In this document: one piece after another, positions 1,334-58,890 of the stretch
How positions within the stretch are numbered: the stretch's first letter is position 1
How the letters are laid out: each line of letters starts with the position of its first letter
DNA from: a virus
Direction: 5' to 3' (one strand)
IMG/VR virus record: IMGVR_UViG_3300044692_000034
Span: 1-64,000 of that record
Length of the DNA stretch: 64,000 nt
Notes under the pieces: model-generated
Told to the model about the DNA's origin: nothing
What the model saw: only the letters and a program-made list of their open reading frames with translations
Database searches by the model: none
Position numbers and translations under genes: made by a program

Positions 1334-2108
1334 GGTGGCTCCTAGCGGTTGGCGCCTGCCCGAGTGGCGGGCGCTGGGTGGTGGGCAACTGCAACCCGAA
1401 TTAGAGCGCAAAGCGGTCAACTGCACAAGGGGTCGAGCGAGTGTTTTCGCGCCAAACTTTCAACCCGGGCCGGGCCGCCTGCCCGCCTGCCAGCACGAGC
1501 ACCCGGCGCCCGCATCGGCGGGGGCCTGCACGAGCACCCGGCCGATGGCCGCATCGGGCAGGCGGCCCGCGCGGCGGCAACCCGGATGCGGGGGCGCAGG
1601 CGCCCATGCGGATGTGCGCATCCGGGCGACGTGGATGCCCGCATCGGCGCATCCGTGGCGGCGCCCGCATCACGCTTACCAACCGCTTTTTTTGACGCGT
1701 CAAACTTGCGCCGAGATTTCCGCATCCGCAGACGCCGGCATCGCGCGACGTATGCGACCTCGCGAGCGCGCGATGGGCTAATCGGCGCCGGCCAGGAGCC
1801 AAACAGATGCCGCAATCGCCGATGTTGCGGTCACGCGCGATTGAGAGGATGCGATGCGCTCACCAAGCCGCCCGAGGCGGCTGTCAAAACATCGGGAGGG
1901 TCGCGCGGGCCGCGAACTGGCCACGAATCAGGGCGCGGCCCGCGCGAGGGGATCTGGTAGGTCCCGATGGGTGCTTCGGGCGGCAACCTACACCACAGAC
2001 CACACCATCGCGAACACGCACGCAGGATTGGCGCATCATGGGGACCAGGCAATCGCCGATACGCGGGGCGCGTCTGGCCGATGGCGGCATCAGCGTGACA
2101 GACACAAA

Positions 2109-2131
2109 GAAGCGGCCCGATGAGCCGCTTC
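2109..2131 (-). terminator. Intrinsic terminator closing the minus-strand gene array
   Basis: 8-bp stem GAAGCGGC/GCCGCTTC followed on minus strand by TTTGTGT, just downstream of ORF ending 2157. Confidence 0.65.
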
Positions 2132-2156
2132 CTTGCCTCAGCGCGATGCTGTTAGT

Positions 2157-2294
2157 TCAGTGGCGCCACGGGAGCCGCCACCGCGCACGAGACGAGCGGT
2201 TCGTGACAGCACGCTCACGGCGAGCCTGCGGCAGCGTGATGGCGGGGTCGAGGGTGCACTCGACGAGCTGGACGGTGTGGCGGTCCGCGCTCAT
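2157..2294 (-). CDS. Small hypothetical protein (45 aa, MSADRH...)
   Basis: Hand-translated; starts 2 nt after upstream stop. Confidence 0.5.
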   Translation of the reverse strand: MSADRHTVQLVECTLDPAITLPQARRERAVTNRSSRARWRLPWRH

Positions 2295-2296
2295 CG

Positions 2297-2389
2297 CTAC
2301 CACTCGCCGTCCTCACCGGTGGGACGCGGAGCGGGCAGCTCGCGCACGACGGGCATTGCGAAGTTGGTGTGTGACTGTGTGGTGGGCAT
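2297..2389 (-). CDS. Leaderless microprotein (30 aa, MPTTQSHTNF...)
   Basis: Hand-translated; ATG 6 nt downstream of -10 TATGGT. Confidence 0.6.
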   Translation of the reverse strand: MPTTQSHTNFAMPVVRELPAPRPTGEDGEW

Positions 2390-2438
2390 AGAACGACCAT
2401 ACGCCTACGTCTTGGTCACGTCAAGGGTGTTTCGTTCG
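2390..2438 (-). promoter_or_regulatory. Family promoter TTGACG-17-TATGGT-6-ATG
   Basis: -35 at 2419-2424, -10 at 2396-2401, TGACC directly after -35, CGAAC 9 nt upstream. Confidence 0.85.
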
Positions 2439-2530
2439 TTTCTGATCGATGTGTCGGTACGCTGACAAACCGGCCGCCGGTGCATCCCCAGACACGGAGC
2501 GGCTACCGGATGAGCACATCCGACCCACAT

Positions 2531-2615
2531 GTGCAGTCCACGCGTCGTGCAGTCCACGCGTCGTGCAGTCCCGCAGTCGCAGTATCGCGCAGTCCTGCCA
2601 TCGCTGCGCAGTCCC
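2531..2615. repeat. Tandem GTGCAGTCCACGCGTC repeat (2.5 copies) plus further GCAGTC units
   Basis: 16-mers at 2531-2546 and 2547-2562, partial 2563-2571, more GCAGT(C) to ~2615. Confidence 0.85.
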
Positions 2616-2623
2616 GAGACGCA

Positions 2624-3264: not shown

Positions 3265-3720
3265 CTACAGGCCCAAGCCGTAGCTGCTCGCGTACATCAT
3301 CTCGCCGTACGCCTCGGTGCTCGCGGCAAGCTCGGCCTCCTCGTCGGTCTGGTCGACCTGCCACTCGGTGTGAACCAGCGGCTCCATCCCATTCCGGGCC
3401 GCGATCCACGTCGCCGTCTCGCGCGCATCGCGGCAGCACGACCCGGCGCACACGTACACGTAGGACTGCGTGTCGCGCATGTAGATGGCGCCGACGTGGC
3501 CTGAGCGGCGTCCGAGAGCGCGGAGTGCGTCACGGGCCGTCTCATGCATCCCGGTGTGCTCGTACTCGACGTGGTCGTGCGTCCAGCCGCATCCGCCGCA
3601 GTGCTCCGCTTGCGGCTTGACGTATCGGCGAGCGTTGTGGAGCATCGACGGCTCAGGGTCGCTTCCGCACGTGATGTGCGGCGTCGCGAACTCGGGCATG
3701 GTGGGCAGGTTGGTGGGCAT
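3265..3720 (-). CDS. Leaderless Cys/His-rich hypothetical protein (MPTNLPT...)
   Basis: Family promoter; CGGC and CAGSCC motifs. Confidence 0.8.
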   Translation of the reverse strand: MPTNLPTMPEFATPHITCGSDPEPSMLHNARRYVKPQAEHCGGCGWTHDHVEYEHTGMHETARDALRALGRRSGHVGAIYMRDTQSYVYVCAGSCCRDARETATWIAARNGMEPLVHTEWQVDQTDEEAELAASTEAYGEMMYASSYGLGL

Positions 3721-3768
3721 GCGCGAAGACTCTCGCACGAGCGCAGTCATTGCAAGTGACAACGTTCG
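3721..3768 (-). promoter_or_regulatory. Family promoter CGAAC-8-TTGCAA-17-GAGTCT-6-ATG
   Basis: Direct reading of the minus strand. Confidence 0.8.
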
Positions 3769-3982: not shown

Positions 3983-4390
3983 CTACGCGTGCCCGTATAC
4001 GCGACGGTCCGCGTCCTCTGCGAGCCATTCCACGGACGCGTGCTTGTCCAGCAGCTCGTCGAGCGCCCGCGACCGCACGCTTTGGTCGTCGAGCCAGATG
4101 CGGTCTTCGTTGGACCACCAGCCGCGCGTCTCGTAATCCTCCGGGCCGGTCCGCTGGAACGATCGCACGAACGAGGCGTGCACCTCAACGCGGCCGGCGC
4201 TGATGCGCTGGTACACCTGCACGTGCTCCCGCTGCTCGACCCCCTGCGGGTCGTCGTGCGGGTAGTCCACCCGCACCCGCACAAGCAGCGCGTCGAGTAC
4301 GGGCGCGGGGGCGCGCAGCAGCACGAGCGGGGACACCTGCCACGTGTGCGCGAGGAGCGTGGCGGAGAGCGGAGCGGCTTTGGTGGGCAT
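3983..4390 (-). CDS. Leaderless hypothetical protein (MPTKAAP...)
   Basis: Family promoter with -10 TAGCAT. Confidence 0.8.
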   Translation of the reverse strand: MPTKAAPLSATLLAHTWQVSPLVLLRAPAPVLDALLVRVRVDYPHDDPQGVEQREHVQVYQRISAGRVEVHASFVRSFQRTGPEDYETRGWWSNEDRIWLDDQSVRSRALDELLDKHASVEWLAEDADRRVYGHA

Positions 4391-4443
4391 GCCGCGCATG
4401 CTACGCGCGCGGCACGGTCACGTCCAAAGCAGAGCGTTCGCGG

Positions 4444-5430: not shown

Positions 5431-6029
5431 CAGGCGGCCACCTTCTCGATCTGCTCGTTGATCTCCGTGAGCGGGATCGTGCCGTGGCAAAACTTCCCGT
5501 TCTCGCCGGACGGCGCGTTCGGCAGCGGCTCCCACGACCACACGATGTCCCTGACCCCGCACCGGATCGTCGTCTTCCCGTACAGGCCGTCGAGCGCTTC
5601 GCGGAGCAGCGAGTGTGCCGCCATCTTCTCGTCGTGCTGCCGCTTCGTCGCGTTCCACTTCGCGCGGTCGCCGGCGTCGGTGAGCGGCAGGATCATGCCG
5701 ACGTTCTCGACGCGGCAGAACTGCTCGCTGTCCGGCCCGAACGCGTTGAACTGCTTGTCGACGTGCGTGTACGCCAGCAGGGCGCCGCTGCCGAGGTTGG
5801 CATCCCGGACGCCGGTGAGCACCACGTTCAGGATGGTGTGGCCCGTGCCAGTGTCGGCCACGAACGCGACGGGCGCGCCCTTGAGCGCGTCCACGGCGAG
5901 CCGGAGGTGGCCGGGCGTCCATCGCGTGTACGCGCGCTCCGTCACGTTCTGGCAGAAGTCGCTCGGCACGAGCACGCAGCTCGTGAGCGCGGGAGTGATG
6001 GGTGAGCGGGTGCTCTCGGTGGTGGGCAT
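5430..6029 (-). CDS. Leaderless hypothetical protein (MPTTEST...)
   Basis: Promoter TTGCCC-17-TACTCT-6-ATG. Confidence 0.85.
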   Translation of the reverse strand: MPTTESTRSPITPALTSCVLVPSDFCQNVTERAYTRWTPGHLRLAVDALKGAPVAFVADTGTGHTILNVVLTGVRDANLGSGALLAYTHVDKQFNAFGPDSEQFCRVENVGMILPLTDAGDRAKWNATKRQHDEKMAAHSLLREALDGLYGKTTIRCGVRDIVWSWEPLPNAPSGENGKFCHGTIPLTEINEQIEKVAA

Positions 6030-6085
6030 GGTTGAAGAGTACGCGCGCTTGCCGGTCAGGGCAAGCGCACACTGTCGAGTCTTGG

Positions 6086-6529
6086 TCAGTTGGCGATCCG
6101 GCTGTACCCGGTGCGGTTGATGTGGACCGTGCCGTCGTCGGTGACGGTCATGATGGTCTGGTCCTTGCCGAGGGAGACGTCGGTGAACATCGGAGGGCGC
6201 TTGCCGGCGCGATGCGCGCGCTGCGCGAGGATCATGTACGCCTGCGCCTGCGCGTCGGTGATCCCGGACCATCCGTGACCGACGCACATGTACCAGTCGA
6301 CGCGGCCGTCGTGGCGGATGATGCCAACGAGGTCGTTCGCGCTCAGGGACGGCAGGTCGTACCCGGCGAGACCGAGGCGCGCGACGTCGTCGGCGGTCAC
6401 AACGTTGAAGTAGCGGAACACGTCCTCGAGGTCCTCGATGCCGTCGAGCGTGCTCGGGTACGCGCCTTGCCATCCGCGACCCGCCGAGACGACGAAGACG
6501 CACAGAGTCTGCTGTGTGGTGGTGGGCAT
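6086..6529 (-). CDS. Leaderless hypothetical protein (MPTTTQQ...), possible YodL-like domain
   Basis: Promoter TTGCAA-16-TATTCT; LEDVFRYFN...PSLSANDLV...WYMCVGHGW resembles the YodL-like pattern. Confidence 0.75.
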   Translation of the reverse strand: MPTTTQQTLCVFVVSAGRGWQGAYPSTLDGIEDLEDVFRYFNVVTADDVARLGLAGYDLPSLSANDLVGIIRHDGRVDWYMCVGHGWSGITDAQAQAYMILAQRAHRAGKRPPMFTDVSLGKDQTIMTVTDDGTVHINRTGYSRIAN

Positions 6530-6731
6530 GCTCGAAGAATAGCCGCGTGCGTAGTCATTGCAAGCGGTTACTTTCGCTGCGAGTCGAAGAACGAGATGCA
6601 CCCAATCGCCAACCCGCTGAGGGTCGCGGCCACACACACGAGCGCAAGCGAACGATGCATCACGCCAACCGCCCACACGGTGGATGTGACCATCCCGACG
6701 CATAGGCCAATGGCATACGCGGCGCTCCTGT

Positions 6732-7932: not shown

Positions 7933-8129
7933 GAGAGCACCGTGACCATCTGGATGCTGTAGCTGCACAGCACCTCGTCGGAGTCGTACGCGTCGAACTT
8001 GCCTTGCGCGTCCGGGGTGCTCGCGACGACGCACCCCTGCTCGAACTCGGTGTCGAACTCGCGTCCCGGGCGGATCTCGCTCGGCTGCACGCGCATCTCG
8101 ACGCGCAGCGGGCTAGTGGTAGTGGGCAT
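7929..8129 (-). CDS. Leaderless small beta-rich protein (MPTTTSP...)
   Basis: Family promoter. Confidence 0.8.
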   Translation of the reverse strand: MPTTTSPLRVEMRVQPSEIRPGREFDTEFEQGCVVASTPDAQGKFDAYDSDEVLCSYSIQMVTVLS

Positions 8130-8177
8130 ACTCGAAAGCTACGGCCTGAGCGCAGTCACCGCAAGCCGCAACGTTCA
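8130..8177 (-). promoter_or_regulatory. Family promoter TGAAC-8-TTGCGG-17-TAGCTT-6-ATG
   Basis: Direct reading. Confidence 0.85.
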
Positions 8178-8678: not shown

Positions 8679-8992
8679 GCCCTTTCGGCCAGCATCGCGA
8701 TGTACGCCTCAGCGACGATGTCGGCGACGCCTGCGTGATTGAGGCCGTACACGTCGTCCTCGATCTCGACGCGCATCGTTTCCATGCCGTCCGGCAGGCG
8801 CTCGCGCAGCGCCGTCCGCACGCCATCGACCGACCGTGCCGTGAGTTCGGCCGCCCACGGCTTGCCGAAGGCATGGCCTGACTGGTGGACGGTGAACTGG
8901 CCGGCCGGGGTGAGCTTGACCGTGATGAGCGGCGAGTCGGGGCGCGTACCGATGCGCGCCTGGTGCTCGAAGGTTGCTGTGGTGGTGGGCAT
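8675..8992 (-). CDS. Leaderless hypothetical protein (MPTTTAT...)
   Basis: TTGCGC-16-TAGTCT-7-ATG. Confidence 0.8.
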   Translation of the reverse strand: MPTTTATFEHQARIGTRPDSPLITVKLTPAGQFTVHQSGHAFGKPWAAELTARSVDGVRTALRERLPDGMETMRVEIEDDVYGLNHAGVADIVAEAYIAMLAERA

Positions 8993-9275
8993 GCTCGAAA
9001 GACTACCGCCGAGCACGGTCGGCGCAAGTACGTCCTGTCACGCCTTGGCAGGGTGTGGCACCCCGGCACGAACACGCCAATCGAACATGAACACGGAAAC
9101 GCACACGCGTTCCACTTGCGACGCCTCATCGAATGATGGGGAATGCGCAGCGGCGTACACGAAGTCGGAGATCCCCATGACGATGTACGACGCAAGCGGG
9201 ATCCGCTCCCACGCGTCCCTGTCCAGGTCGGGGTGCCCTACCGCATACGGCACCACATGACGCGGCATGTCGCCG

Positions 9276-9542
9276 CTAGACACGCGCAACGCCGCAGCGG
9301 TCGCACGTGTGCCCGGCCCGCACGAGGTGCGTGCACGACACCGGGTCGGTGCTCGGCTCCACGATTCGCTTCACGTACCACGAATGCGAGCCGAACCAGT
9401 CGGTCCCGTACGGGGCCTGCTGCATCAGCCACGAGCGCCAGAAACGCGGCTTGCTCGGCCGCTGCACGACCAGCTCCGTCCCGTCGGCGAGCGTGACGCC
9501 CATCTCGACGGGGCCTGTGGTGGACGACTTGGTGGCGGGCAT
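9276..9542 (-). CDS. Leaderless protein with C-terminal Zn-binding motif (MPATKS...)
   Basis: TTGCAT-17-TAGGTT-7-ATG; CTH...CDRC. Confidence 0.75.
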   Translation of the reverse strand: MPATKSSTTGPVEMGVTLADGTELVVQRPSKPRFWRSWLMQQAPYGTDWFGSHSWYVKRIVEPSTDPVSCTHLVRAGHTCDRCGVARV

Positions 9543-9767
9543 GCGTCGAAACCTATACGCCTTGTCGGGTCAATGCAAGGCGTTTTGTTCGCCAGTGTCA
9601 GGACGCAGCACGGACATCGCCTTCGCGCACGAACGTGGTGTACGACCACTTCGGTGCGCGATCGGCGAGCGCGTCCTTGACCATCTCGACGGCATGCGCC
9701 TCTGGATGGTCGACTTGCGTCGCCACAGACACACGGACGATGACCTCGACGACGTGGTCGTTGGCCA

Positions 9768-10058
9768 TCAGTAGTGCTCCACGCGGACGCCGCCGCGCGG
9801 CCCCATCGAGAGCTGCCGGTCTGGGTACGGGTCGCCGTGCACGTCCTCGGACGTCGGGTCGTAGAAGTACACGTTCCACGTCGTCGTCTCGTCCGCCATC
9901 TCGTGCGGGTCCTCGCAGTACCGCCAAAACGCGTCCTTCGCGCGCTTGAGCGAGGAGTGCTCCGTCACATCGCGCGGGTCGCGCGGGTCGCCGGGAGTGT
10001 GGTTGTAGTCACCGTTCGGCACGGTCCAGACCGGGCCACGGTGAGAAGGACGGGGCAT
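9768..10058 (-). CDS. Leaderless hypothetical protein (MPRPSH...)
   Basis: Family promoter; ends YPDRQLSMGPRGGVRVE. Confidence 0.8.
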   Translation of the reverse strand: MPRPSHRGPVWTVPNGDYNHTPGDPRDPRDVTEHSSLKRAKDAFWRYCEDPHEMADETTTWNVYFYDPTSEDVHGDPYPDRQLSMGPRGGVRVEHY

Positions 10059-10108
10059 GAAAAGAAGACTACGGGGCTACGGCAGTCACCGCAACCCCGT
10101 AACGTTCA
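10059..10108 (-). promoter_or_regulatory. Family promoter TGAAC-9-TTGCGG-17-TAGTCT-7-ATG
   Basis: Direct reading. Confidence 0.85.
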
Positions 10109-10450
10109 GTCGGTCGCGACGTGCGCGCTCTGCTTCTCCGTCGTACGCAGGACAACGATGAGAGCAGCGATGTACGCCTCACGGGCCGGGTCCACATCAC
10201 ACCACTCACCCGTCTCCTCATCCTGGACCGGTGCGGTCTGCGGCAGGACCCATTCCCACCGCACATCCGTGATCCGCCGCACGAGATGGCCGCGATAGAA
10301 CGCGTACGTGTACTGGTGCCCGTCGTGCGTGTGCGTGACGGTGTTGGCCTCTCCGTCGGAGATTTCGAGGGCGTACATGAGCGGAATGCGTTCGCCGTCG
10401 CGAGGCTTCTTGACGTGATACGTGTCGATGACTGGCTTGCTGGTGGGCAT
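10106..10450 (-). CDS. Leaderless hypothetical protein (MPTSKP...)
   Basis: TTGCCT-17-TAGATT-7-ATG. Confidence 0.8.
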   Translation of the reverse strand: MPTSKPVIDTYHVKKPRDGERIPLMYALEISDGEANTVTHTHDGHQYTYAFYRGHLVRRITDVRWEWVLPQTAPVQDEETGEWCDVDPAREAYIAALIVVLRTTEKQSAHVATD

Positions 10451-10477
10451 GCTCAGAAATCTACCACCATGCCAAGG

Positions 10478-10936
10478 TCAAGGCAACGCGTAGCGTTCGC
10501 GGGAGCGCTCAAACCCGAGCGGCGTCTTCCCGGCAATGTCTACGGCAGGGCACGCCATGAACTCAGCCGGCAGCATCGCTTCCTCTCCGTGCGCGAGCGG
10601 CGTTCGCAAATGGAACACCGCATCGCCGAAGTCCAGCCGCTCCAGCATCGCGTCACCGACCCCGTAAAGCAGAGTCTCAGCCGCGCGCTCAAGTACCCGC
10701 CGCTCAGCTCGACCCAGCCGTGAGAGCGGCACCGGGCCTGTACTGGCGTCCAATAGAGCTACCGAGGCGTGCCACACGGGCCGCCCACCGAACGCGTCCA
10801 GTCAGCGGTTGACGGTGAGGATGCTGGAGAGCAACAACCCACGCCGCGACGGTACGATCTCCCGGAAGCGCGGATGCATGGTGTCATCCGCGAGCTGGCA
10901 CGGGTGCTCGAACGCAGCCCGCTGCCGAGGCGTCAT
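10478..10936 (-). pseudogene. Hypothetical gene interrupted by a single in-frame TGA (10802-10804)
   Basis: ATG 10936 overlaps upstream stop; frame reads ...ILTVNR*LDAFGGRPVWHASV... to 10478. Confidence 0.55.
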
Positions 10937-11982: not shown

Positions 11983-12305
11983 GACTGCTCCTCGAGGATG
12001 CGGGCGACCATGGCGAGCTTCTCCGGCGTGACGTTGAACCAGTGCGTCTTGCCGTTGCCGATCGCCTGCATGTGGAAGAAGCCGGTCCCCGGGATGGGGC
12101 CGCGCTCCAGCAGGTCGGTGATCATGCCGGTGGCATAGCCTTGGCCGAGCGGCGCGGTAGCCGGGTCGTTCCCGCTGAGCCTGTCGTACGCGTCCTGGTA
12201 CCGGCCGACTGTACCCGGGTCGAGGTACTCGGTGTCGTTCTCCAGGACGTATCCGAGCGCTTCGGTTGCCGTGTTCAGGGCGTCGGTGTAGGTGGTGGTG
12301 GGCAT
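11979..12305 (-). CDS. Leaderless hypothetical protein (MPTTTYT...)
   Basis: TAGACG-17-TAGTCT-7-ATG. Confidence 0.8.
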   Translation of the reverse strand: MPTTTYTDALNTATEALGYVLENDTEYLDPGTVGRYQDAYDRLSGNDPATAPLGQGYATGMITDLLERGPIPGTGFFHMQAIGNGKTHWFNVTPEKLAMVARILEEQS

Positions 12306-12338
12306 AACAAGAAGACTACGTGCCGTGTGCGGTCGCGT

Positions 12339-12688
12339 CTACTCGGTACGTTCACCGAGCGCGGCGCGGAGTTCTTCGGGCGTGCCTAGGACCATCTCGC
12401 CACGCTCAAGGATGTGGTCGCTGTACTTGTTCGCGAGGAGCGTCTGGTCGATGCGCCATCCGTCGAATGCGTCGGTGCCGGCGATGATCTCCGGCTTGAG
12501 CGTGACGTTTCCGATGACCAACGCATCGGCGCGTTTGGTGAACAACCACGGATGCTCGATGCCGGCACACGAGACGCACCCGCGATGATGACGACCGGAT
12601 TGCCTGCGTGGTCCCTCTGACGGCGAGCCCACAACCACGCAGGCGCGGTGATGTACCCCGGACCGAGAAGGTCAGCGATGATGTCCAT
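12339..12688 (-). pseudogene. Probable single gene split by a -1 frameshift near 12580
   Basis: N-half in ORF 12386-12688 (MDIIADLLG...VVIIAG), C-half in ORF 12339-12638 (CVSCAGIEHPW...). Confidence 0.5.
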
Positions 12689-12915
12689 CAGTTGTCGTCT
12701 CGGATGAGCTTGCAGGACAGCACCTCGTCACGGCTCGCGCGGCGCGGCGGCTTCACCATGCGGCCGCCCTCTTTGATGACCTCGTGCTGGCCGTTCGCGT
12801 GGAGCACCACGACGAACCCCGACGACTTGATGGCGGCCTTTGCGAACTCCGGAGCACTCGACGTGCCGTTGCTCTGGAAGGCGACGCGCTGCTTACGCTG
12901 TGCAATGGTGGGCAT
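12688..12915 (-). CDS. Leaderless small basic protein (MPTIAQ...)
   Basis: TTGCAG-17-TAGTGT-7-ATG. Confidence 0.75.
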   Translation of the reverse strand: MPTIAQRKQRVAFQSNGTSSAPEFAKAAIKSSGFVVVLHANGQHEVIKEGGRMVKPPRRASRDEVLSCKLIRDDN

Positions 12916-12966
12916 ACGACAGACACTACGGGCCGCGAAGCATCTCTGCAACGCGGCCCGTTCAGT

Positions 12967-13754: not shown

Positions 13755-14087
13755 CTACTCGCGCTCGGCGTCCTGCTCAAGGATGGCCTGTGCCTCGGCG
13801 ATGGCTTCGGCGAGCGCGGCGCTGATGCATGTCGCCAGCTCGATGCTCTTGTCGCTGGCGCTCGCGAGGCTGATGCGCGGCTCGCCGTGCAGCCCGAGTC
13901 CGTCGGTGTCGGGGAGCCACAGCTCGACGGTGTGGTACGGGCGCAGCACGTTGCTGTCGCGCCAGATGTACCCGTCCTTGTAGATCGCGAAGTGGATGAG
14001 CGATCTGCCTTGCGGGACGCGCTTGAGCGACCACCCGTCGGGCAGCTTGTGCGTCGTGATGTCCGTGGTGGGTTCTCGTGTGGGCAT
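13755..14087 (-). CDS. Leaderless hypothetical protein (MPTREPTT...)
   Basis: TTGCGT-17-TAATCT-7-ATG. Confidence 0.8.
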   Translation of the reverse strand: MPTREPTTDITTHKLPDGWSLKRVPQGRSLIHFAIYKDGYIWRDSNVLRPYHTVELWLPDTDGLGLHGEPRISLASASDKSIELATCISAALAEAIAEAQAILEQDAERE

Positions 14088-14097
14088 GGTGAAAAGA

Positions 14098-14328
14098 TTA
14101 CTCGCCCGGCTTGGTCGACGCAACCCCATTTGGTTCGTCGTCGAGCAAACGCATCCCGAGTGCGACAGCCACATCCTGCCGCATGCGCTTGAGGCTGCCG
14201 CCCTGCTTCATGCGTTGCTCCATCACGGCCACAGCCGCTTCGAACGGACCGAGCACGAACACCATTGCGTCTTCTCGCCGCACCGTGATGGTGACAGTCT
14301 CATAGCCCACAACGATGTCAGTCGACAT
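14098..14328 (-). CDS. Hypothetical protein
   Basis: ORF track, coupled. Confidence 0.55.
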   Translation of the reverse strand: MSTDIVVGYETVTITVRREDAMVFVLGPFEAAVAVMEQRMKQGGSLKRMRQDVAVALGMRLLDDEPNGVASTKPGE

Positions 14329-15880: not shown

Positions 15881-16444
15881 TCATGAGCCGGCCTCTCTCA
15901 TCTTCTTGTTGTACGACTCGATGATCTCAGGCTGCCACACAGCCGGGTCCTGCGACGACCCGCCGTGCCCAACGATGCCGCACAACGTGGACCACGTGAT
16001 GTGCACCACGTTGACGTGCGTGCCATCCGGCAGAGCACGAACACCGCCGCCGTCCTTCATCATGGCGATCTGCTCGGCCACGCCGAGCTTGTCGGAGATG
16101 GCCGTGCCGTACAGCGCGTTGTACACCTCGCGCTCATCGTGCAGGTCATCGACCACTCGCTCGGAGAGGGTGTTCTCGAGGCCTGCTCTTGACCCGGCGT
16201 GCTCCCTCGGGCCGACGTGCTGGATCTTGTACGGCATGGTCTCCACGGTGTCGAGGACGAACTCGGACTCCACCTTGCCGCTCGGGAACAGCCGCAAGTG
16301 AACGACATCGATCGGCCGGCGGCGCATCCTGGCCTGCTTACGGGCACGCTGACAGATCGTCGCCGGGTTGTCCCAGACGCGGCCGGCGAACTCTCCCGTC
16401 TCGGCCACGCGGAACTCGAAGAGTGCGTTGTGGGTGGTGGGCAT
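15881..16444 (-). CDS. Leaderless hypothetical protein (MPTTHNA...)
   Basis: Family promoter. Confidence 0.8.
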   Translation of the reverse strand: MPTTHNALFEFRVAETGEFAGRVWDNPATICQRARKQARMRRRPIDVVHLRLFPSGKVESEFVLDTVETMPYKIQHVGPREHAGSRAGLENTLSERVVDDLHDEREVYNALYGTAISDKLGVAEQIAMMKDGGGVRALPDGTHVNVVHITWSTLCGIVGHGGSSQDPAVWQPEIIESYNKKMREAGS

Positions 16445-16480
16445 ACTCAAAAGACTACAGAGCACGCACAGTCGCGTCAA
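16445..16480 (-). promoter_or_regulatory. Family promoter TTGACG-17-TAGTCT-7-ATG
   Basis: -35 at 16475-16480, -10 at 16452-16457. Confidence 0.85.
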
Positions 16481-16991: not shown

Positions 16992-17524
16992 GACCGGAGG
17001 GAGCTGTCCAGCGCGTACTGCCCGTCCTGGAGGCAGCGCTCCATGATCATCGCTGTGCGGCCCATGTACTCGACGAGGTGGCGGGCGACGCGAGTGTCCC
17101 AGCACAGCGGCACCGGCCCGGGGGAGAACGGGTCGCTGAAGTCGTTGTCGGGTCCGTCGGGTCCGCCGAGCGCGAACACGGCGAGAAGGTTCCCGTAGTT
17201 CGCGAACGTGGCCGTGAAGACCCAGGGGGACAGCGCGAGGCGCGTACGCCCGTCCTGGTCGCTCTTGTCCTTCGGGCACAGGATGTCCGGCACGGTGTCG
17301 CCGATCATCCACATGCCACCGGCGTTCACGATGCCGCCATCGCCGAAGTACGGGCCGGTCATGTGCATGCACGTCTCGGCCGCGTAGTTCACGAGCCCGA
17401 GCACGTCGTCGATGTCAATGACGTGGTCGAGGTCGATGTCGATGAGCCTGCGGCGCGGGGCGACCATGTACTTCGTCCCCATGACGTCAAAAGTGTTGTA
17501 CGGCTCTTTGCGTGCGGTGGGCAT
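16988..17524 (-). CDS. Leaderless hypothetical protein (MPTARKE...)
   Basis: TTGCTA-17-TAGTCT-7-ATG. Confidence 0.8.
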   Translation of the reverse strand: MPTARKEPYNTFDVMGTKYMVAPRRRLIDIDLDHVIDIDDVLGLVNYAAETCMHMTGPYFGDGGIVNAGGMWMIGDTVPDILCPKDKSDQDGRTRLALSPWVFTATFANYGNLLAVFALGGPDGPDNDFSDPFSPGPVPLCWDTRVARHLVEYMGRTAMIMERCLQDGQYALDSSLRS

Positions 17525-17574
17525 GGTAAGAAGACTAAAGGCCGCTTGCGGTCGTAGCAAGCAGCCCGTGTCGC

Positions 17575-18135
17575 CTACAGGACGGGGCGCGTGGTGCGCT
17601 GGACGCACCACCGTGAGAGCTTGTCCGGCTGCACTCCTTGCCGGTAGCTCACCGCACCGGGACGCACCACGACGTAGGAGACCAGCTCGCCGCCTTCCTT
17701 CTCCCACCCGAGGTCGATCTCATCGTTGAAGCCGTCGTCGAGAGAGAAGCCTTCCTCGGGCTGCACGTCGTTCTCAGGATCGAGCCCCACGAGCGCGACA
17801 GCCTGCGACGGCTTGAAGCCACCCTCGTTCAGGTGCTCGACGATCTCCTTCGCCTTGGTCGCAAGCCGGTCCGGCGGGAGCGCGTGATGGGGGTCGGGGA
17901 ACCGCTCCGTGTCGTGTACCACGGGCGGATACGCGCCGTTGTCGCCGAGGTAGCTCTTGTACGCGGCGCCGAGCAGGCCCTCCGGGTCGATCCCCATACG
18001 CGCGGCGGCATGCAGGATGTTCGCGACCGCATCGCGAACACCGGTGAACGGCTCGTTCAGCGCCCAATCGGGCGCGGCGGCGTAGATACCGCGCTCGCCC
18101 CAATCAGCGTGGCGGTCATTCTCTGTGGTGGGCAT
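17575..18135 (-). CDS. Leaderless hypothetical protein (MPTTEND...)
   Basis: Family promoter. Confidence 0.8.
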   Translation of the reverse strand: MPTTENDRHADWGERGIYAAAPDWALNEPFTGVRDAVANILHAAARMGIDPEGLLGAAYKSYLGDNGAYPPVVHDTERFPDPHHALPPDRLATKAKEIVEHLNEGGFKPSQAVALVGLDPENDVQPEEGFSLDDGFNDEIDLGWEKEGGELVSYVVVRPGAVSYRQGVQPDKLSRWCVQRTTRPVL

Positions 18136-18184
18136 GGACAGGAGGCTACGTGCGGTACGTGGTCACCGCAACGCTCAACGTTCG
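18136..18184 (-). promoter_or_regulatory. Family promoter CGAAC-8-TTGCGG-17-TAGCCT-7-ATG
   Basis: Direct reading. Confidence 0.85.
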
Positions 18185-19543: not shown

Positions 19544-19683
19544 CAGGAGATGATGCTTCCGTCCTCGAGGCCGCCGGTGAGCGCGGCGACGAGGCCGCCG
19601 CCGCACACGAGCAGGATGACGGCGAGCCACACCGGCATCTCGTCGAACGGGGCGGGGAAGTAGGACTTGGTGGTGGTAGGCAT
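19543..19683 (-). CDS. Leaderless single-TM microprotein (46 aa, MPTTTKSY...)
   Basis: Hand-translated; TTGCGT-16-TAGTCT-7-ATG; TGATG overlap. Confidence 0.7.
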   Translation of the reverse strand: MPTTTKSYFPAPFDEMPVWLAVILLVCGGGLVAALTGGLEDGSIIS

Positions 19684-19731
19684 GAGCAGAAGACTACTCG
19701 CCTGAGCGGTCAACGCAACCGGACGCGTTCG

Positions 19732-20614: not shown

Positions 20615-20995
20615 TTAGCGCGCGGCAGCAGCCGGTAGCTGAACCCCCGCGACCCACTCGGCGCTGTCAACGCGAAACGCGATGACGGAGGAGAGGGGGA
20701 TGTACCGATCCTTGCTCCGGCCCGAGGTCTGGTCGACGGTACGCACGAGGATGTCATCTCCCTGCGAGCTGCCGCGCGTACGCTGGACCATCACGCCGGT
20801 GAATCGATGCTTCACGGTGTCGGCGGTCACCATCACCTTTCCGACGCCCTTGAGCAGTCGCGCTGCGTCTGCGACGTCACGTGCCGTCGTGATGATGTAC
20901 GCCTTGGAGGCAAACTGGCGGCCCACGAGCTGCGCCAGCTTCTCCATCTCCGCCACCATCTCAGGGGTGGCGTCCTTCTCGTCCTGGGTGGGCAT
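20615..20995 (-). CDS. Hypothetical protein, Sm/SH3-like C-terminus
   Basis: RYIPLSSVIAFRV; leadered. Confidence 0.6.
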   Translation of the reverse strand: MPTQDEKDATPEMVAEMEKLAQLVGRQFASKAYIITTARDVADAARLLKGVGKVMVTADTVKHRFTGVMVQRTRGSSQGDDILVRTVDQTSGRSKDRYIPLSSVIAFRVDSAEWVAGVQLPAAAAR

Positions 20996-21346: not shown

Positions 21347-21660
21347 GGCATCCGCCACCGGCGCGGGCGGGAGTCGCGCACACGAACCACGAGTCCGCGC
21401 TTCTCCAACGTCCCGAGCACGACGTACGCATTCGGGTAGTCGTAGTTCAGGGCGCCTGCAATCTCGTTCGTCGTGTACCCGTTTGGCTTGTCGTGCTCCG
21501 CAAGCCATTCGACAAAGCGAGCCTGCGCAGACCCGAGCTGATGCGTCTCCTCTTCTCCTCCGAGCGCTTGCGCTAGCGCGATGTGCGCACGGCCGACAGC
21601 GGCATGGAAGTCGGCGTACGCTTGCCGGGTCGAGTCGTCTGGCGGTAGGTCGGTGGGCAT
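21343..21660 (-). CDS. Leaderless winged-HTH protein (MPTDLP...)
   Basis: YTTNEIAGAL...VLGTLEKRGLV; TTGCTA-17-TAGCCT-7-ATG. Confidence 0.8.
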   Translation of the reverse strand: MPTDLPPDDSTRQAYADFHAAVGRAHIALAQALGGEEETHQLGSAQARFVEWLAEHDKPNGYTTNEIAGALNYDYPNAYVVLGTLEKRGLVVRVRDSRPRRWRMP

Positions 21661-21879
21661 AGAACGAAGGCTATATGCTGGTTATGGTCGTAGCAAAAAG
21701 GAAGGTTCGTAGCGCGTAGCAAGCGGCCGGACCCCGTAGCGACGCCCGGTGCCCGGCGGCCCCTGGCAAACGATCCGAGCACAGGGACGGCGAGGCAGTA
21801 GCGGCGCGAGCCGGTAGGAGATCGCCGCTGGTCAGGCGGCACCGGCATAGGGCGCGATGGGCTTGGAGTCGGCCGCTTG

Positions 21880-36143: not shown

Positions 36144-36193
36144 TGGCGCCGAGGATACCCGCAGGCACCCTCGGCACAAGGCAGAGCGTTCGG

Positions 36194-37504: not shown

Positions 37505-37528
37505 GGTGTGACTCCCTTTGTGGGTAGC

Positions 37529-37944: not shown

Positions 37945-37954
37945 ACAAACAAAG

Positions 37955-38036
37955 CGGAGGGCGCGGGAGTCGAACCCGGAGCTGGTTAGGCTCGCACGAT
38001 TAGCAATCGCGCTGCGGCACCGGACGCTCACCCTCC
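37955..38036 (-). tRNA. tRNA-Ser(GCT), atypical (possible 8/4 fold)
   Basis: GGAGGGTG/CGCCCTCC-G73, loop TTGCTAA, variable stem GAGC/GCTC, T-stem CGGG/CCCG with TTCGACT. Confidence 0.8.
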
Positions 38037-42369: not shown

Positions 42370-42632
42370 GCCTGCTCCGCTGCTGCCTGACGAGCCTGCA
42401 CCGTCTCCCGGACCTGCGTGATCTCGACGCCGGGGCCGAGCACCATCACCGGCACCTTGAACCCCCACTGCTCAGAGACGTGCGCCTTGATATCTCCTGC
42501 CAGCTCCTTGAAGTCGTGGTTCGGCATGGTCTTCCACGTGTCGCCATCCAAGCTGAAGACGAGCGCGTCTCCCGGCTCCAACGTCAGCTTCCGGACCTCG
42601 ATGTCCATGAGCCGCTTTAGGTCGTCGGTCAT
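42366..42632 (-). CDS. Phage hypothetical protein
   Basis: LTLEPGDALV...VMVLGPGVEI. Confidence 0.65.
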   Translation of the reverse strand: MTDDLKRLMDIEVRKLTLEPGDALVFSLDGDTWKTMPNHDFKELAGDIKAHVSEQWGFKVPVMVLGPGVEITQVRETVQARQAAAEQA

Positions 42633-43003
42633 GCTTCCTCTCCTGTGATCTGCCGCCACCATGCGACAGCTTGAACCCGGTTTCTGACCCCAATGCGCGG
42701 ATAGATCTGCGCAAGGTGATACTTCACTGCCTGCTCTGTCGTCGACAACCGCGCCGCTATCTCAGAGTTCGTGAACCCTTCGGCGAGCAGTGTCACGACC
42801 TCTGCTTCGGTGCGCGAGAGCCCGTGACTAACGTCACGGCGCGTCCCCTCGTCCGGCGTGAACTCGTACGCCTCCCGGTTGTAGACGACCGTCTCAACCG
42901 TCTGCGAGCCGCACTGATGGCAATACGGTGTCTCGCGCTGCAACCTGCAAGCCCGGCACACACGGATTTTGACGCCCTTTGGCCATAGCGGTACGCCGCT
43001 CAT
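42629..43003 (-). CDS. Zn-ribbon + LuxR-type HTH transcription regulator
   Basis: CRAC..CHQC; LSRTEAEVVTLLAEGFTNSEIAARL...VKYHLAQIYPRIGVRNRVQAV. Confidence 0.9.
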   Translation of the reverse strand: MSGVPLWPKGVKIRVCRACRLQRETPYCHQCGSQTVETVVYNREAYEFTPDEGTRRDVSHGLSRTEAEVVTLLAEGFTNSEIAARLSTTEQAVKYHLAQIYPRIGVRNRVQAVAWWRQITGEEA

Positions 43004-48100: not shown

Positions 48101-48786
48101 GCGTCCTCCTTGAGCACGCCCACGAGCGGCGTGCCCGTGCGCCACTCGCGCGGCGGCGTCTGCTTGAGCGAGTTCCAGAAAGCTTCGAACGCTCGGCGGA
48201 GTTCGAGGCGGGTGGCGTGGTAGCCAGCCGTCCAGAGCCACATCCGCCTGTACCAGCCGTCACTGAGCGCGTCGATGTCCGCTTGCGTCGCGTTCATGTT
48301 CGCCATCTCAATCCTCTCGCGGTTCCGTGGTGCCCCAGTGACGCGGCCGGGACGTAGCCGTCAAAGCTTCGTCGATTTCTTCGTGTACGCGTGCGTCTCT
48401 CTCGCCGTTGAGCTTGTCGCGCTCGGCACGACGAACGTCCTCCGTGTACTTCTTGAGCAGCGTGAGAATCGGTTCGCCACTAGCAGACTTCGCCACAATC
48501 GTCGCCCGAAAGAACGCGAGATGCGCCTCATGAAATCCCTGCGAGTCGGTCACGGCCTCTCCCATCCTGCTTGGAATGCGTACCGGCACATCGGCTCCCC
48601 CCACCGGCACGACTCCCAGAACGTCTTCCCGGCACGAGCTGCTTCCTGCCCAGCCCCATACAACGCCGGGTACCGCGACTTCAGCATCACCGCATCCATC
48701 TCTGGTACGCGCTCCGTCGGGCCACGTCGGACCGGCTCAGGCACATCCTCGAAAGATGACGGTTGGTGGGGCACGAGAGCAGCAGG

Positions 48787-49188
48787 CTACCGGCTGTATG
48801 GCCACCGCGCTACGTCGAGACGTTCCCACTCGTTGTGGCTCGACTTCAGCGACGCGAACAACCTCACCTTGTCAAGGTCCTGCACCACCTTGAACGCTGC
48901 GTTCTCCCAGCGTTGCAGCAGCCGCCCATGCCCAGCGATGGGCTTGCCGTGTGCGCCGCTCAGCGGGTAGACGTCCCACACGAACCGCATGGTGTCGAGG
49001 TCGTCGGTGGAGTAGGGCGCGTACCCGCACCACACGAGCACACCAATCGCGTCAGGGTCGATCCACGGGATGCTCGTTTCGACGACGAGGTCACCGGGCT
49101 CGGGTGGATCGAGATCGCCGGCCTGTTCGTCGGCATACACGACCTCGCGGGCCGTCTCCACCACGAGCATGAGTTCGTCACGCGTCAC
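48787..49188 (-). CDS. Hypothetical protein
   Basis: PEPGDLVVETS...RWENA. Confidence 0.6.
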   Translation of the reverse strand: MTRDELMLVVETAREVVYADEQAGDLDPPEPGDLVVETSIPWIDPDAIGVLVWCGYAPYSTDDLDTMRFVWDVYPLSGAHGKPIAGHGRLLQRWENAAFKVVQDLDKVRLFASLKSSHNEWERLDVARWPYSR

Positions 49189-56292: not shown

Positions 56293-56711
56293 CAGTTCAC
56301 GAACGTCCTTCCGGCTCTACGGTCCACTTCGTGCTGCTCGTAATGGTCATAGTGCGTCTCCTCGATGCGCTTGAAGTAGCGCTTGAGGTCTTCGACTTCG
56401 GGCCGCTCGAACAACCTGTTGCGGGTGTTGCAACCCGGGCAGATGAACTGGCCCTCGTCCATATGCCAGCGGTCCCCGCCGGTGCACCCGTGCGGACCCT
56501 CGTACCAGTGCGTCTGGATGTACACGAGGTTCTTGACGGCGTACCGCCGGCCGCAAGCGTGGCACATGACCCGAGTCTTACGCTTCGCTTTGTTGACCAG
56601 CGTCCTTATGCGCGACGCCTCGACCTCCGTAGCCCTGAGCTGTTCGAGCAGCCCCTCCAGCTCAGCCGGCGGATACACCTTGGACTTCTTTGGACGTAGC
56701 CGTGTGGCCAT
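56292..56711 (-). CDS. Zn-ribbon protein
   Basis: CHAC...CPGC. Confidence 0.7.
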   Translation of the reverse strand: MATRLRPKKSKVYPPAELEGLLEQLRATEVEASRIRTLVNKAKRKTRVMCHACGRRYAVKNLVYIQTHWYEGPHGCTGGDRWHMDEGQFICPGCNTRNRLFERPEVEDLKRYFKRIEETHYDHYEQHEVDRRAGRTFVN

Positions 56712-57046
56712 TACTCCAAATCCCCTCCCGGCCCCGGCGGGATACGCCCCTCATCGATGAGCTGCTGCGCCCGTGTCTGCGGCACGAGCGGCGGCAACCC
56801 ACGAGCACGACGCCACGCTTGCTCAGCGTGGTACGCACCCTGAGCCTGTGTCATAAACGGGCCTTTGTGTGGTGGCCGGAGCCCGGACTGCGGCTCCCTG
56901 TCCTGCGGCATGGCCTGGCAGAAGTGGAGCCTGCACCGCTTGCACCGGCCTCCGTCGTTCTGGCCGTGCCAGCAACCGGGGCAGTAGTGCGTACAACCCG
57001 CTTCCTTAGCCTCCTGGAAGCGGGCCATCTTCTCCTGCGTGACCAC
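56711..57046 (-). CDS. Cys-rich hypothetical protein
   Basis: CPGC, CKRC. Confidence 0.55.
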   Translation of the reverse strand: MVTQEKMARFQEAKEAGCTHYCPGCWHGQNDGGRCKRCRLHFCQAMPQDREPQSGLRPPHKGPFMTQAQGAYHAEQAWRRARGLPPLVPQTRAQQLIDEGRIPPGPGGDLE

Positions 57047-57049
57047 GAG

Positions 57050-57838
57050 CTACAGCCTGTCCGCCCACGCCTGCCAGACGACCTTCTGGCACAACCGCGA
57101 CGCCTCGGTTGTGTCGACGCGCTCCGGCCATGACTTGGCAGCGATGATCTCCCGCTCCAGAGCGCGAGCCATGTCGAGCGTTCCTTCCAGCTCTTCGGTG
57201 ACCTGGCCGAGAGTCCACTGGCCGCGCTTGATCGCGATGAGCATGTCCGCGTCGTTGCTGGTGCGGTTGACGATGAGCTTCCATGTCTGGAGCAGGTCGA
57301 CGAGCATGTGCGCCAACCGGATCGCATGCGACGCGTTCTTGACGTCGTAACCGAACTCCTCGGCGAGAGCGCGTCGGCGTTCGCCCATGTACGCCTGGTC
57401 GGTCGGCTTGCTCTTCATCTTCGAGACCTGGCCGGCGATGTACCCCATGAACGCCGTGATCGTCTGCTGTGTCATCGTGAACATGCCACGCGACTGGATG
57501 AGCAAGCGCGCCGGCTCGCTCAGAACATCGTAATCGTCGAGCCACAGCATCGTGAGCACGTTCGGGTTGCCCTTGCACAGCAGCCGCACGAACTTCACGA
57601 CATCGTAGATGACGACATCCCATGGGCCGTTCATGACGTTCTTGGTGCCCTGCGAATGCCCGTACGTCTCCAACCCGAAGTAATAGCCGGGCGGCAGCAC
57701 AACGACATCCATCATGTCGATGTCGTCGGTGCCGAAGCGGTCATCGGCCTCCGGCGGGATCGTGGTGCCGTGCGCCTGGCTACCCCGGTATCCCGAGAGG
57801 ATCGCCCACTCAGACGGCTCGTACACGAACTCGGTCAT
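57050..57838 (-). CDS. Pol-beta-superfamily nucleotidyltransferase (phage YcgL/RlaP-like)
   Basis: GSQAHG...DIDMMD, KGNPN, GYDVKNASHAIRL, AIKRG. Confidence 0.88.
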   Translation of the reverse strand: MTEFVYEPSEWAILSGYRGSQAHGTTIPPEADDRFGTDDIDMMDVVVLPPGYYFGLETYGHSQGTKNVMNGPWDVVIYDVVKFVRLLCKGNPNVLTMLWLDDYDVLSEPARLLIQSRGMFTMTQQTITAFMGYIAGQVSKMKSKPTDQAYMGERRRALAEEFGYDVKNASHAIRLAHMLVDLLQTWKLIVNRTSNDADMLIAIKRGQWTLGQVTEELEGTLDMARALEREIIAAKSWPERVDTTEASRLCQKVVWQAWADRL

Positions 57839-57845
57839 GCGTCTC

Positions 57846-58379
57846 CTAGAACGGCACGTGCTGCCGGTTGTGGTCGTTGATCGCATGGCAGGCGCACGCG
57901 CACGGCAACGACCCCATGGGGCCACGCTTCTTGAGGCAATGCTCGTGGTCGCCGCGCACGCAGTCCATCGAATGCATGTCGCGGCCGAGCTGTAGGCGGC
58001 CATGCTGCGGCCCCGGCACCCCACAGTTCGGGCACACATCAACCCAGCCGGCGACCTGTACACGAGGCTGGCACTCGCAGAACCACGGGCCGAGAGTCGG
58101 CGGCTCGTACGGCGGCGTCGTCTCCTCCGCGTACGGCTTCCACCTGTCGTCTCCCGGAGCCGTCTGGATGCGTGTGCCCGGGTGGCTCTGTGTCGCCGGC
58201 ACCGGCTTGCTCCGCATCGTGACCGCGTTGAACGTGAGCTGGTCCCACAGCCGCGTGAACCACTCGACGTCGACGACGAGCGCAGCCGCCTCGGCGGAGT
58301 CTCCCTCGAACCAGTAGACCGCGTTCTCGGTGCTCGCGGCGAGCACCGACCCCGGTGTGCGCTCCTCGTTGTCGCTCAC
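57846..58379 (-). CDS. Hypothetical protein with Cys/His-rich C-terminus
   Basis: CPNC, CACACH. Confidence 0.6.
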   Translation of the reverse strand: MSDNEERTPGSVLAASTENAVYWFEGDSAEAAALVVDVEWFTRLWDQLTFNAVTMRSKPVPATQSHPGTRIQTAPGDDRWKPYAEETTPPYEPPTLGPWFCECQPRVQVAGWVDVCPNCGVPGPQHGRLQLGRDMHSMDCVRGDHEHCLKKRGPMGSLPCACACHAINDHNRQHVPF

Positions 58380-58831
58380 TGCGCACCCTCCGGGATCTTC
58401 TTCATCAGGTAGTAGTTGAGTGCCGTGTCATCCGCCGGCACCGTAGTCGGCCCCTGGTAGACGTACAGGCAGCCGCGACCGTCGTCGGCGTTGTCCGATG
58501 GGCGAAGGTAGATGTACTCGAACTCGCCCATGCCGACGACGAGGAAGCCTGCAACGCCCGTGCCGTGGTTCACGAATGGGACGTAGTGAACGATGGTGTC
58601 GTCGTGCCCGTACTCGGTGGGCGGAAGCAGCAGCTCGATGCCGGACTCGACCACACGGCCGTTGTCGTTCGGGAAGTAGAGGTACACGTAGCCGGGTGCG
58701 ACAGCGATCGGCACCTTGACGTTCGGGTCGTCGTTGCCATTGGCAGGAGGCGCGCCCATGAAGCAGTCGGAGCCCTCGTGGCGTGCCATGAGTGCCTGCA
58801 CTGACCTGTCGAAGTCGTCGGGGTCGAACAC
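58376..58831 (-). CDS. Hypothetical protein
   Basis: GAGGAG RBS + GTG. Confidence 0.75.
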   Translation of the reverse strand: MFDPDDFDRSVQALMARHEGSDCFMGAPPANGNDDPNVKVPIAVAPGYVYLYFPNDNGRVVESGIELLLPPTEYGHDDTIVHYVPFVNHGTGVAGFLVVGMGEFEYIYLRPSDNADDGRGCLYVYQGPTTVPADDTALNYYLMKKIPEGAQ

Positions 58832-58845
58832 TTGCGCTCCTCGTC

Positions 58846-58890
58846 GGTGGTGGGTATAGCCACCCTAGTGAGTGGCTTAGTTCAAAACAA
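58846..58890 (-). promoter_or_regulatory. Family-like promoter TTGTTT-17-TAGGGT followed by non-coding ATACCCACCACC leader
   Basis: -35 at 58885-58890, -10 at 58862-58867. Confidence 0.6.

Follow-up and report, generated by a model that had tools for sequence, protein, structure and literature searches.

A C/A-rich tag at the start of predicted leaderless early genes in a phage of a probable Solirubrobacterales host

Why do 26 cassettes of one phage, placed before genes whose products are otherwise unalike, end in nearly the same codons? The question is raised by a 64,000-base stretch of DNA of an uncultured soil phage, called the window below, which comprises bases 1-64000 of the IMG/VR virus record IMGVR_UViG_3300044692_000034 (141,737 bp, about 96% complete). 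The cassettes typically end in ATG CCC ACC ACC, read as MPTT, and the bases after the start codon, with the consensus CCCACCACC, are referred to here as the tag. A sequence-only reading of this DNA had claimed that the tag is selected at the nucleotide level and not just as the peptide MPTT. The analysis presented here points the same way. Concerning the role of the tag, the favoured reading, held with about as much belief as doubt, is that of an RNA-level 5' module for leaderless translation initiation.

A repeated promoter and start-codon cassette

The window has a G+C content of about 65%, and nearly all genes of the phage, as called with simple scripts, are encoded by the minus strand. Relaxed patterns recover a family of 26 cassettes of about 60 bp each, all on this strand and at 2.3-36.2 kb. 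Each cassette consists, in order, of a GAAC block, a -35 box TTGC, a GAC conserved within the promoter spacer, a -10 box TAGTCT, six to seven nucleotides, and ATG CCC ACC ACC. All 26 match the pattern TTGnnn, 16-18 nt, TANNNT at the sequence level, and sub-families have -35 blocks in common. The GAAC(G) block is located about 10 nt 5' of each -35 box, at about -50 (e.g., at 12350, 10100, and 8170). It often reads TGAAC, its TGA being the stop codon of the upstream gene. The 6-7 nt between the -10 box and ATG are mostly T-rich and leave no room for a Shine-Dalgarno (SD) site. This spacing would put the start of transcription on the A of ATG, giving leaderless messages, which are presumably transcribed by the host RNA polymerase with its primary sigma factor and early in infection. 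The genes behind the cassettes are unrelated ORFans encoding proteins without Pfam or PHROG function, and apart from the tag these proteins have nothing in common. Three cassettes open short open reading frames (ORFs), namely those at 36143 (8 codons), 22415 (41 codons), and 2389 (30 codons), and in two or three cases such an ORF seems coupled to the next start. The predicted leaderless cassettes are as follows.

36132-36179, minus strand: ATG 36143, 8-codon mini-ORF MPTMYRES; its TAG overlaps GTG 36117, the start of the real gene, preceded by GGGAG as SD site
33708-33754, minus strand: ATG 33719, MPTT, 260 amino acids
32044-32097, minus strand: ATG 32061, MSTPTT; motif displaced by two codons, +10 to +18
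28786-28832, minus strand: ATG 28797, MPTA
27950-27997, minus strand: ATG 27961, MPTP; strong hairpin between -35 and -10
25962-26009, minus strand: ATG 25973, MPAA (CCT GCC variant)
23069-23115, minus strand: ATG 23080, MPTT
22404-22451, minus strand: ATG 22415, MPTT; 41-codon ORF, the stop of which overlaps the ATG (ATGA) of gene 21880-22293
21649-21696, minus strand: ATG 21660, MPTD
19672-19718, minus strand: ATG 19683, MPTT (codon 2 CCT)
18124-18171, minus strand: ATG 18135, MPTT
17513-17560, minus strand: ATG 17524, MPTA; terminator-like hairpin in the promoter
16433-16480, minus strand: ATG 16444, MPTT
14065-14123, minus strand: ATG 14087, MPTREPTT; degenerate copy at +4, perfect copy at +16 to +23
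12904-12951, minus strand: ATG 12915, MPTI; strong promoter hairpin
12294-12342, minus strand: ATG 12305, MPTT
10439-10486, minus strand: ATG 10450, MPTS
10047-10094, minus strand: ATG 10058, MPRP; terminator-like hairpin in the promoter
9531-9578, minus strand: ATG 9542, MPAT
8981-9027, minus strand: ATG 8992, MPTT
8118-8164, minus strand: ATG 8129, MPTT (codon 3 ACT)
6518-6563, minus strand: ATG 6529, MPTT
6018-6064, minus strand: ATG 6029, MPTT; strong promoter hairpin
4379-4427, minus strand: ATG 4390, MPTK
3709-3755, minus strand: ATG 3720, MPTN (-10 box GAGTCT)
2378-2424, minus strand: ATG 2389, MPTT, 30-codon ORF

The motif CCCACCAC occurs 20 times in the window, compared with 3.19 ± 1.8 copies in dinucleotide-preserving shuffles, and none of 100 shuffles reaches 20. 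On the sense (minus) strand of the whole 141,737 bp, 15 copies are found. They are all situated between 1.4 and 58.9 kb, with none in the remaining 78 kb, and all lie close to 5' ends, at most about 25 nt after a predicted promoter. The antisense strand of the genome carries nine copies, which are evenly spread. Likewise on the sense strand, there are 23 copies of TGCCCACC (2.4 expected) and 10 of CCCACCACC (0.7 expected).

Ten copies of CCCACCAC directly follow an ATG, and no other ATG-plus-motif exists in the 142 kb. Two copies are displaced by some codons into the gene while staying in frame, at 32045 (MSTPTT) and 14065 (MPTREPTT). Three are untranslated and reside in 5' leaders, at 58846, 37530, and 1377. 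The position of the motif is accordingly not constant: it starts at +4 in most cassettes, at +10 behind ATG 32061, at +16 behind ATG 14087, and at about +2 or +8 in the three leaders, and its distance from the -10 box is 7, 10, 14, 16, or 22 nt. Copies at transcript 5' ends where no protein can be tagged had been claimed by the sequence-only reading, and the three leader copies bear this out. All four sites that it cited are present as described, on the minus strand, the one at 48774 being a weaker variant. In addition, two starts within operons carry ATG plus CCCACC, with about 0.1 expected and no promoter present. These copies outside the cassette family are listed below.

58829-58890, minus strand: predicted leadered transcript, TTGTTT-17-TAGGGT; untranslated motif 58846-58854 (about +1/+2), 7 nt after TAGGGT; GAGGAG SD site; GTG 58831, 14 nt past the motif
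37502-37580, minus strand: predicted leadered transcript, TTGCAA-16-TACATT; untranslated motif 37530-37538 (about +8), 14 nt after TACATT; C/A-rich leader; AAAGGGAG SD site; GTG 37504
1331-1428, minus strand: predicted leadered transcript, TTGTGC-17-TCTAAT; untranslated motif 1377-1385 (about +8), 14 nt after TCTAAT; TAGGAG SD site; ATG 1333
48761-48789, minus strand: weak variant of uncertain family membership, TAGCCT, 9 nt, GTG, then CCCCACCAACC (48761-48774; reads MPHQP)
20987-20995, minus strand: ATG then CCCACC at an SD-led intra-operon start (MPTQ), no promoter upstream
32386-32394, minus strand: ATG then CCCACC at a second intra-operon start (MPTS) of a 97-amino-acid gene with a weak winged-helix match

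In the third of these leaders, a TTG at 1388 precedes ATG 1333 by 55 nt and is out of frame with it. A promoter of the same type (TTGCACTGACC ... TACACT) is also present at 61227-61311 on the minus strand, before a leadered, SD-led gene; its leader is C/A-rich, and the motif is absent from it.

In 10 of the 26 cassettes, a hairpin (z < -1.5) reaches as far as the -10 box, those of the remaining cassettes being weak. The hairpins begin at the -35 box and stop shortly before the -10 box, and the T-rich -10 box and discriminator come next, as seen at 27962-27997, 12916-12951, 10059-10103, 17525-17567, and 6030-6064. Their arms differ between cassettes yet stay complementary. Three of the ten were called as terminator-like by a terminator scan. 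On structural analogy, the hairpin cassettes look like combined terminator-promoter units, as in the PeSLs (promoter-early stem-loop cassettes) of T4-type phages discussed below.

Selection on nucleotides and its reach beyond the phage

Codon choice separates the tag from the peptide that it encodes. Genome-wide, proline is encoded by CCG in 62.6% and by CCC in 20.7% of cases, and threonine by ACG in 55% and by ACC in 29.8%. At codon 2 of the 26 cassette starts, CCC occurs 23 times, CCT twice, AGT once, and CCG never. Relative to genome usage, the excess of CCC has P=3.6e-14 and the absence of CCG P=2e-11. At codon 3, ACC accounts for 20 of the 23 threonines, with ACA, ACT, and ACG used once each (P=2e-8 vs genome usage), and where codon 4 encodes threonine, ACC is used in 9 of 13 cases (P=0.004). 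Codons 2-10 of 109 SD-led genes from the same genome display ordinary usage, with CCC in 15/73 and ACC in 31/89 cases. A comparison of third positions with genome codon usage had been proposed by the sequence-only reading as a check on nucleotide-level selection, and its outcome at codons 2 and 3 supports such selection.

The conservation is confined to discrete blocks. Information content amounts to 1.2-1.65 bits at +4 to +8, comparable to that of the -35 TTG, and drops to 0.24 bits at +12. Pairwise identity across cassettes is 0.76 for the block +4 to +11. In the columns between and around the blocks it is close to chance, with 0.32 vs 0.30 in the spacer, 0.31 vs 0.29 at +13 to +42, and 0.28 vs 0.27 upstream. 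Since the free columns are at chance identity, the cassettes have diverged to saturation, and the block, including its third codon positions, has been held by selection. Recent duplication as the origin of the likeness is rejected for the same reason. A purely peptide-level explanation fails, because minority C-ending codons are fixed at synonymous sites, three copies are untranslated, and the cassette at 36143 encodes merely eight codons. The sequence data thus support nucleotide-level selection on the tag, in the sense of selection rather than activity, and a secondary peptide constraint on MPT(T) may exist alongside it.

The tagged 5' ends also differ in base composition and in predicted structure. 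At +4 to +12, the G content is 6% in cassettes vs 27% in SD-led genes. It is still 20% vs 31% at +13 to +30 and becomes normal beyond +30. The predicted cost of freeing nucleotides 1-12 is 1.5 kcal/mol for native cassettes, compared with 4.5 kcal/mol for SD-led starts and 5.0 kcal/mol for random 70-mers. When codons 2-4 are recoded to G-ending synonyms, the cost increases to 4.8-5.0 kcal/mol (paired P ~1e-6). The cassette at 22415 is the sole one with a 5' end predicted to be mostly paired. Within its 41-codon ORF, at 22374-22381 on the minus strand, lies GGTGGGCA, complementary to the 5' end of its own message. This message may be a self-regulating leader before the winged-helix gene 21880-22293, as far as the folding model goes.

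No GenBank phage has similar DNA or a similar large terminase (TerL) protein. TerL relatives in genome collections are mostly found in metagenome-assembled genomes of Solirubrobacterales, and from these matches the host is probably an actinobacterium of this order. Two pattern scans of IMG/VR yielded single chance matches only. Scans of viral, metagenome, and genome collections with a TerL alignment retrieved distant kin only (40-45% identity), in which the motif is absent, and a scan with an early-protein alignment gave no match. TerL relatives with 55-61% identity and two early-gene orthologues are known as proteins. One orthologue, P0122, corresponds to the gene at ATG 33719 and begins MPATTP; the other, the fragment P0125, corresponds to the gene at ATG 16444 and begins MPTTSN.

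In 301 Solirubrobacterales genomes, the pattern TANNNT, 7 nt, ATGCCCACC has 90 matches vs 8 for a reversed control, with at most three per genome and a diverse codon 4. Two unpublished genomes (G179 and G228) contribute 2 of the 90 matches, and the conclusion is independent of both. Judged by these counts, the leaderless geometry from -10 box to ATG is real in the probable host order. A set of 118 crude leaderless starts was collected with simple scripts from three Solirubrobacterales genomes (1.2 Mb). Codon 2 is diverse in this set, with proline in 12% (CCC 6, CCG 5). Crude host-order promoters show no -35 signal, GAAC and the spacer GAC being absent too. Supply of transfer RNA (tRNA) as a cause of the codon choice is rejected, as the window encodes only tRNA-Tyr and tRNA-Ser, and CCC is not the major proline codon in host-order genomes. 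Pairing of the tag with 16S ribosomal RNA (rRNA) is rejected as well. In host-order 16S rRNA, the best site, in helix 34 (GGUGGUG), reaches -16.0 kcal/mol vs -16.1 ± 1.8 kcal/mol for shuffled C/A tails.

Weighing the explanations

The observation that gave rise to the question is confirmed and nucleotide selection is supported; for the mechanism, the readings that follow differ in probability. In the favoured reading, the motif would form the 3' end of an early-gene cassette recurring 26 times, and AUG plus the G-free C/A tract would act in the RNA as the translation-initiation module of leaderless messages. The tract would keep the 5'-terminal AUG single-stranded in a genome of 65% G+C, and ribosomes would load on this exposed AUG without an SD site. 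The C/A tract would occupy the place that SD site plus start codon hold in T4-type PeSLs, and the MPT(T) peptide would be largely a by-product. The variable position of the motif, the promoterless operon starts, the coupling of upstream ORFs to the genes behind them, the G-poor tract reaching to about +30, and the predicted accessibility favour such a role in the RNA, in ribosome loading, over that of an element of the promoter complex.

Several points count against this reading. Every transcription start is predicted from spacing. Synonyms ending in A or T are predicted to be as open as the native codons (1.0 and 1.2 kcal/mol, respectively), and C is nevertheless preferred among the non-G codons (P=9e-5 for proline, 0.01 for threonine). 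Accessibility therefore accounts for the exclusion of G, not for the exact sequence, which in terms of the folding model would mean that something besides lack of structure is recognised in the tag. A G-free initially transcribed region equally suits promoter escape. At the remaining start codons of the phage, outside the cassettes, CCCACC shows no enrichment (5/37, P=0.22), and its role as a general start-codon signal or enhancer of this phage is therefore rejected. A general host rule is rejected too, as the crude host-order leaderless starts lack a preference for CCC ACC. From the lack of a host rule, of 16S rRNA pairing, and of enrichment elsewhere, it follows that the signal is specific to the early set of this phage, which leaves room for a dedicated factor that reads it as a tag.

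A transcriptional element acting at the DNA level seems unlikely. The tag would then be an initially transcribed sequence tuned for fast promoter escape, or an operator at +4 to +12 through which a regulator stops every early promoter from clearing at once. Without G in the non-template strand, sites prone to pausing, as described by consensus pause elements, would be avoided. The cassettes carry conserved blocks beyond a plain host promoter, namely GAAC at about -50 and the spacer GAC, and the missing -35 signal in crude host-order promoters hints at an extra factor. All sense copies are on one strand, downstream of predicted starts. As for possible factors, the phage encodes a LuxR/GerE-family helix-turn-helix protein of 124 amino acids at 42629-43003 on the minus strand (E=9e-15), directly downstream of the TerL gene. 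By homology, this protein is a candidate transcription regulator. Weak winged-helix proteins are also encoded. However, the variable distance from the -10 box to the motif is ill-suited to contacts with RNA polymerase, two ATG-plus-CCCACC operon starts have no promoter, and a LuxR-type dimer would be expected to need more than an asymmetric site of 9 bp. Furthermore, searches of the phage found no homologue of sigma region 2, WhiB, or an integrase.

Somewhat more doubtful is the proposal that CCCACCACC serves as a 5' handle read by a protein or a small RNA, by which the early set is switched off or protected in the manner of T4 RegA/RegB. The preference for C, which exceeds both G-avoidance and accessibility, would suit such a handle, as would a motif that is phage-specific rather than a rule in host-order genomes and that occurs both translated and untranslated. 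A possible partner is the following element.

29103-29148, minus strand: hairpin, fully paired stem of 13 bp; 18-nt loop, complementary over 11 nt to the conserved 5' end; no more than a lead

About 0.06 such complementary 11-mers are expected per genome. The loop is also complementary to 13 nt of the leader at 1377-1389. The hairpin is located within about 190 nt without coding signal, downstream of a gene ending at 29248. It may act as a terminator or as a regulatory RNA, or may have arisen by chance. Against it, the lead was found post hoc, the hairpin lacks both its own promoter and a credible Rfam match, and its loop is partly self-complementary. The shorter anti-motif GGTGGGCA is not enriched (7 vs 3.7 expected). 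No cold-shock-domain homologue exists among the search results to read the handle, and RegA and RegB homologues were not found either, in searches that are weak for both, since the controls gave no signal anywhere. It is quite improbable that CCCACCACC is an address on about 25 early 5' ends for a dedicated factor such as the G-rich loop of this hairpin RNA, and we know of no example of such trans control of leaderless messenger RNAs (mRNAs). If true, the entire set of leaderless early genes could be shut down or shielded by the phage in a single step.

A recombination junction without a function of its own, in which the repeats are sites of gene swapping and the first codons travel with the promoter, is very unlikely. 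The PeSL-like architecture, with a hairpin in about 10 of 26 cassettes and ORFans downstream (PMC2839356), and the sub-families with common -35 blocks would fit this idea. It is opposed by the chance identity of the columns between the blocks. The blocks have survived saturating divergence, which implies selection on each of them, third codon positions included. The copies in unrelated promoter contexts (58846, 37530, and 1377) would also be left unexplained. Hardly credible, finally, is a peptide tag, in which N-terminal Pro-Thr-Thr would act after Met removal as a stability, sorting, or protease signal: proline does occupy position 2 in 25 of 26 cassettes vs 10 of 109 SD-led genes, the two orthologues of the relatives retain MPTT or MPAT with divergence further along the protein, and both displaced copies are in frame, but the fixation of synonymous sites to minority codons, the untranslated copies, the eight-residue product, and the dissimilarity of the tagged proteins leave the protease or stability tag, offered as an alternative by the sequence-only reading, without support.

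The window encodes further features beside these elements. In addition to TerL and an SNF2 helicase, there are an RlaP-type nucleotidyltransferase (57050-58063) and a Ro60/TROVE protein with a vWA domain (62038-63864), both on the minus strand, and this pair is a phage-borne RNA repair and quality-control set. Where the leaderless array gives way to the remaining genome, the genes for tRNA-Tyr (GTA) and tRNA-Ser (GCT) are located at 37857-38036 on the minus strand. A simple gene caller detected no convincing gene in the roughly 900 bp with 70% G+C (1400-2300) that separate the 2389 cassette from the promoter at 1428.

Comparison with known systems

The stoperators of cluster A mycobacteriophages, such as the sites of L5 gp71, are many short asymmetric sites in one orientation relative to transcription. 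Their function is tied to a lysogenic repressor, and they are scattered through intergenic positions in both arms of the genome. The motif resembles them in its single orientation, with all 15 sense-strand copies downstream of promoters, and differs in being confined to 5' ends. Neither a tyrosine-integrase nor a serine-recombinase domain was detected in the phage genome, which is 96% complete, so that the temperate character of a stoperator phage is not seen here. In phage T4, RegA and RegB control early mRNAs through a shared motif in the initiation region. Here too, a short sequence is common to many early initiation regions and could allow coordinated control. In T4, the motif consists of GGAG or the region of the AUG, whereas the tag is a C/A tract. 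The downstream box, known from lambda cI and T7 gene 10, is a conserved sequence after AUG that was proposed to aid initiation, including that of leaderless phage mRNA. The tag shares with it the position after AUG and the leaderless context. It lacks the feature that defines the downstream box, as pairing of the tag with 16S rRNA is not above chance.

Leaderless genes abound in Actinomycetota. It is an open question which properties, apart from a 5'-terminal AUG, let a leaderless mRNA serve as a good template (PMC9031893). CA repeats after the start codon raise both leaderless and leadered translation, while structure close to the start inhibits it (PMC9031893). The enhancer concerned consisted of synthetic (CA)n and was tested in E. 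coli (Martin-Farmer and Janssen 1999, in PMC9031893). Furthermore, 5'-terminal AUGs of leadered mRNAs bind 70S ribosomes (PMC4965119). The phage tag is similar in being a G-free tract of C and A only, right after the start, in leaderless as well as leadered contexts, and in that nucleotides rather than a peptide appear to be under selection, which is evidence of selection and not of activity. It is different in being a natural and specific 9-mer, fixed 26 times, with C chosen over A or T at wobble sites. The phage can be regarded as a natural experiment with 26 replicates, in which nine nucleotides after AUG stay constant at synonymous sites and the surroundings are at chance. The tag is thus a testable candidate for a signal in leaderless translation or at the 5' end.

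In Corynebacterium glutamicum, a synthetic leaderless bicistronic design uses a first mini-cistron to feed ribosomes to a coupled start (PMC10367133). The pairs 36143/36117 and 22415/22293 resemble this design, with the difference that they are natural and that the arrangement is seen in just 2-3 of 26 cassettes. The cassette may itself be of use as a compact part, promoter and start in one, for expressing genes in high-G+C bacteria.

The closest parallel in layout is offered by the PeSLs of the T4-type phages RB49 and phi1 (Arbiol et al. 2010, PMC2839356). Each of these units, which number in the dozens, runs from the stop codon of the upstream gene through a strong sigma-70-like promoter, with a stem-loop that frequently occupies the space from -35 to -10, to an SD site and a start. 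They recur in front of ORFans, among which they mediate shuffling (PMC2839356). The cassettes likewise are many repeated units among small, presumably early ORFan genes, combining a stop codon, a strong sigma-70-like promoter, and a start, and about 10 of the 26 carry a predicted hairpin that ends at the -10 box. Unlike the PeSLs, they belong to a phage that is not T4-like and has an actinobacterial host, probably of the Solirubrobacterales. They contain no SD site, the message would begin at ATG, and conservation at the 3' end covers ATG together with nine coding bases. The promoter/terminator design of T4-type PeSLs would thereby extend to an unrelated actinobacterial phage in a leaderless form, with the synonymous-site evidence and the C/A tag being specific to this phage.

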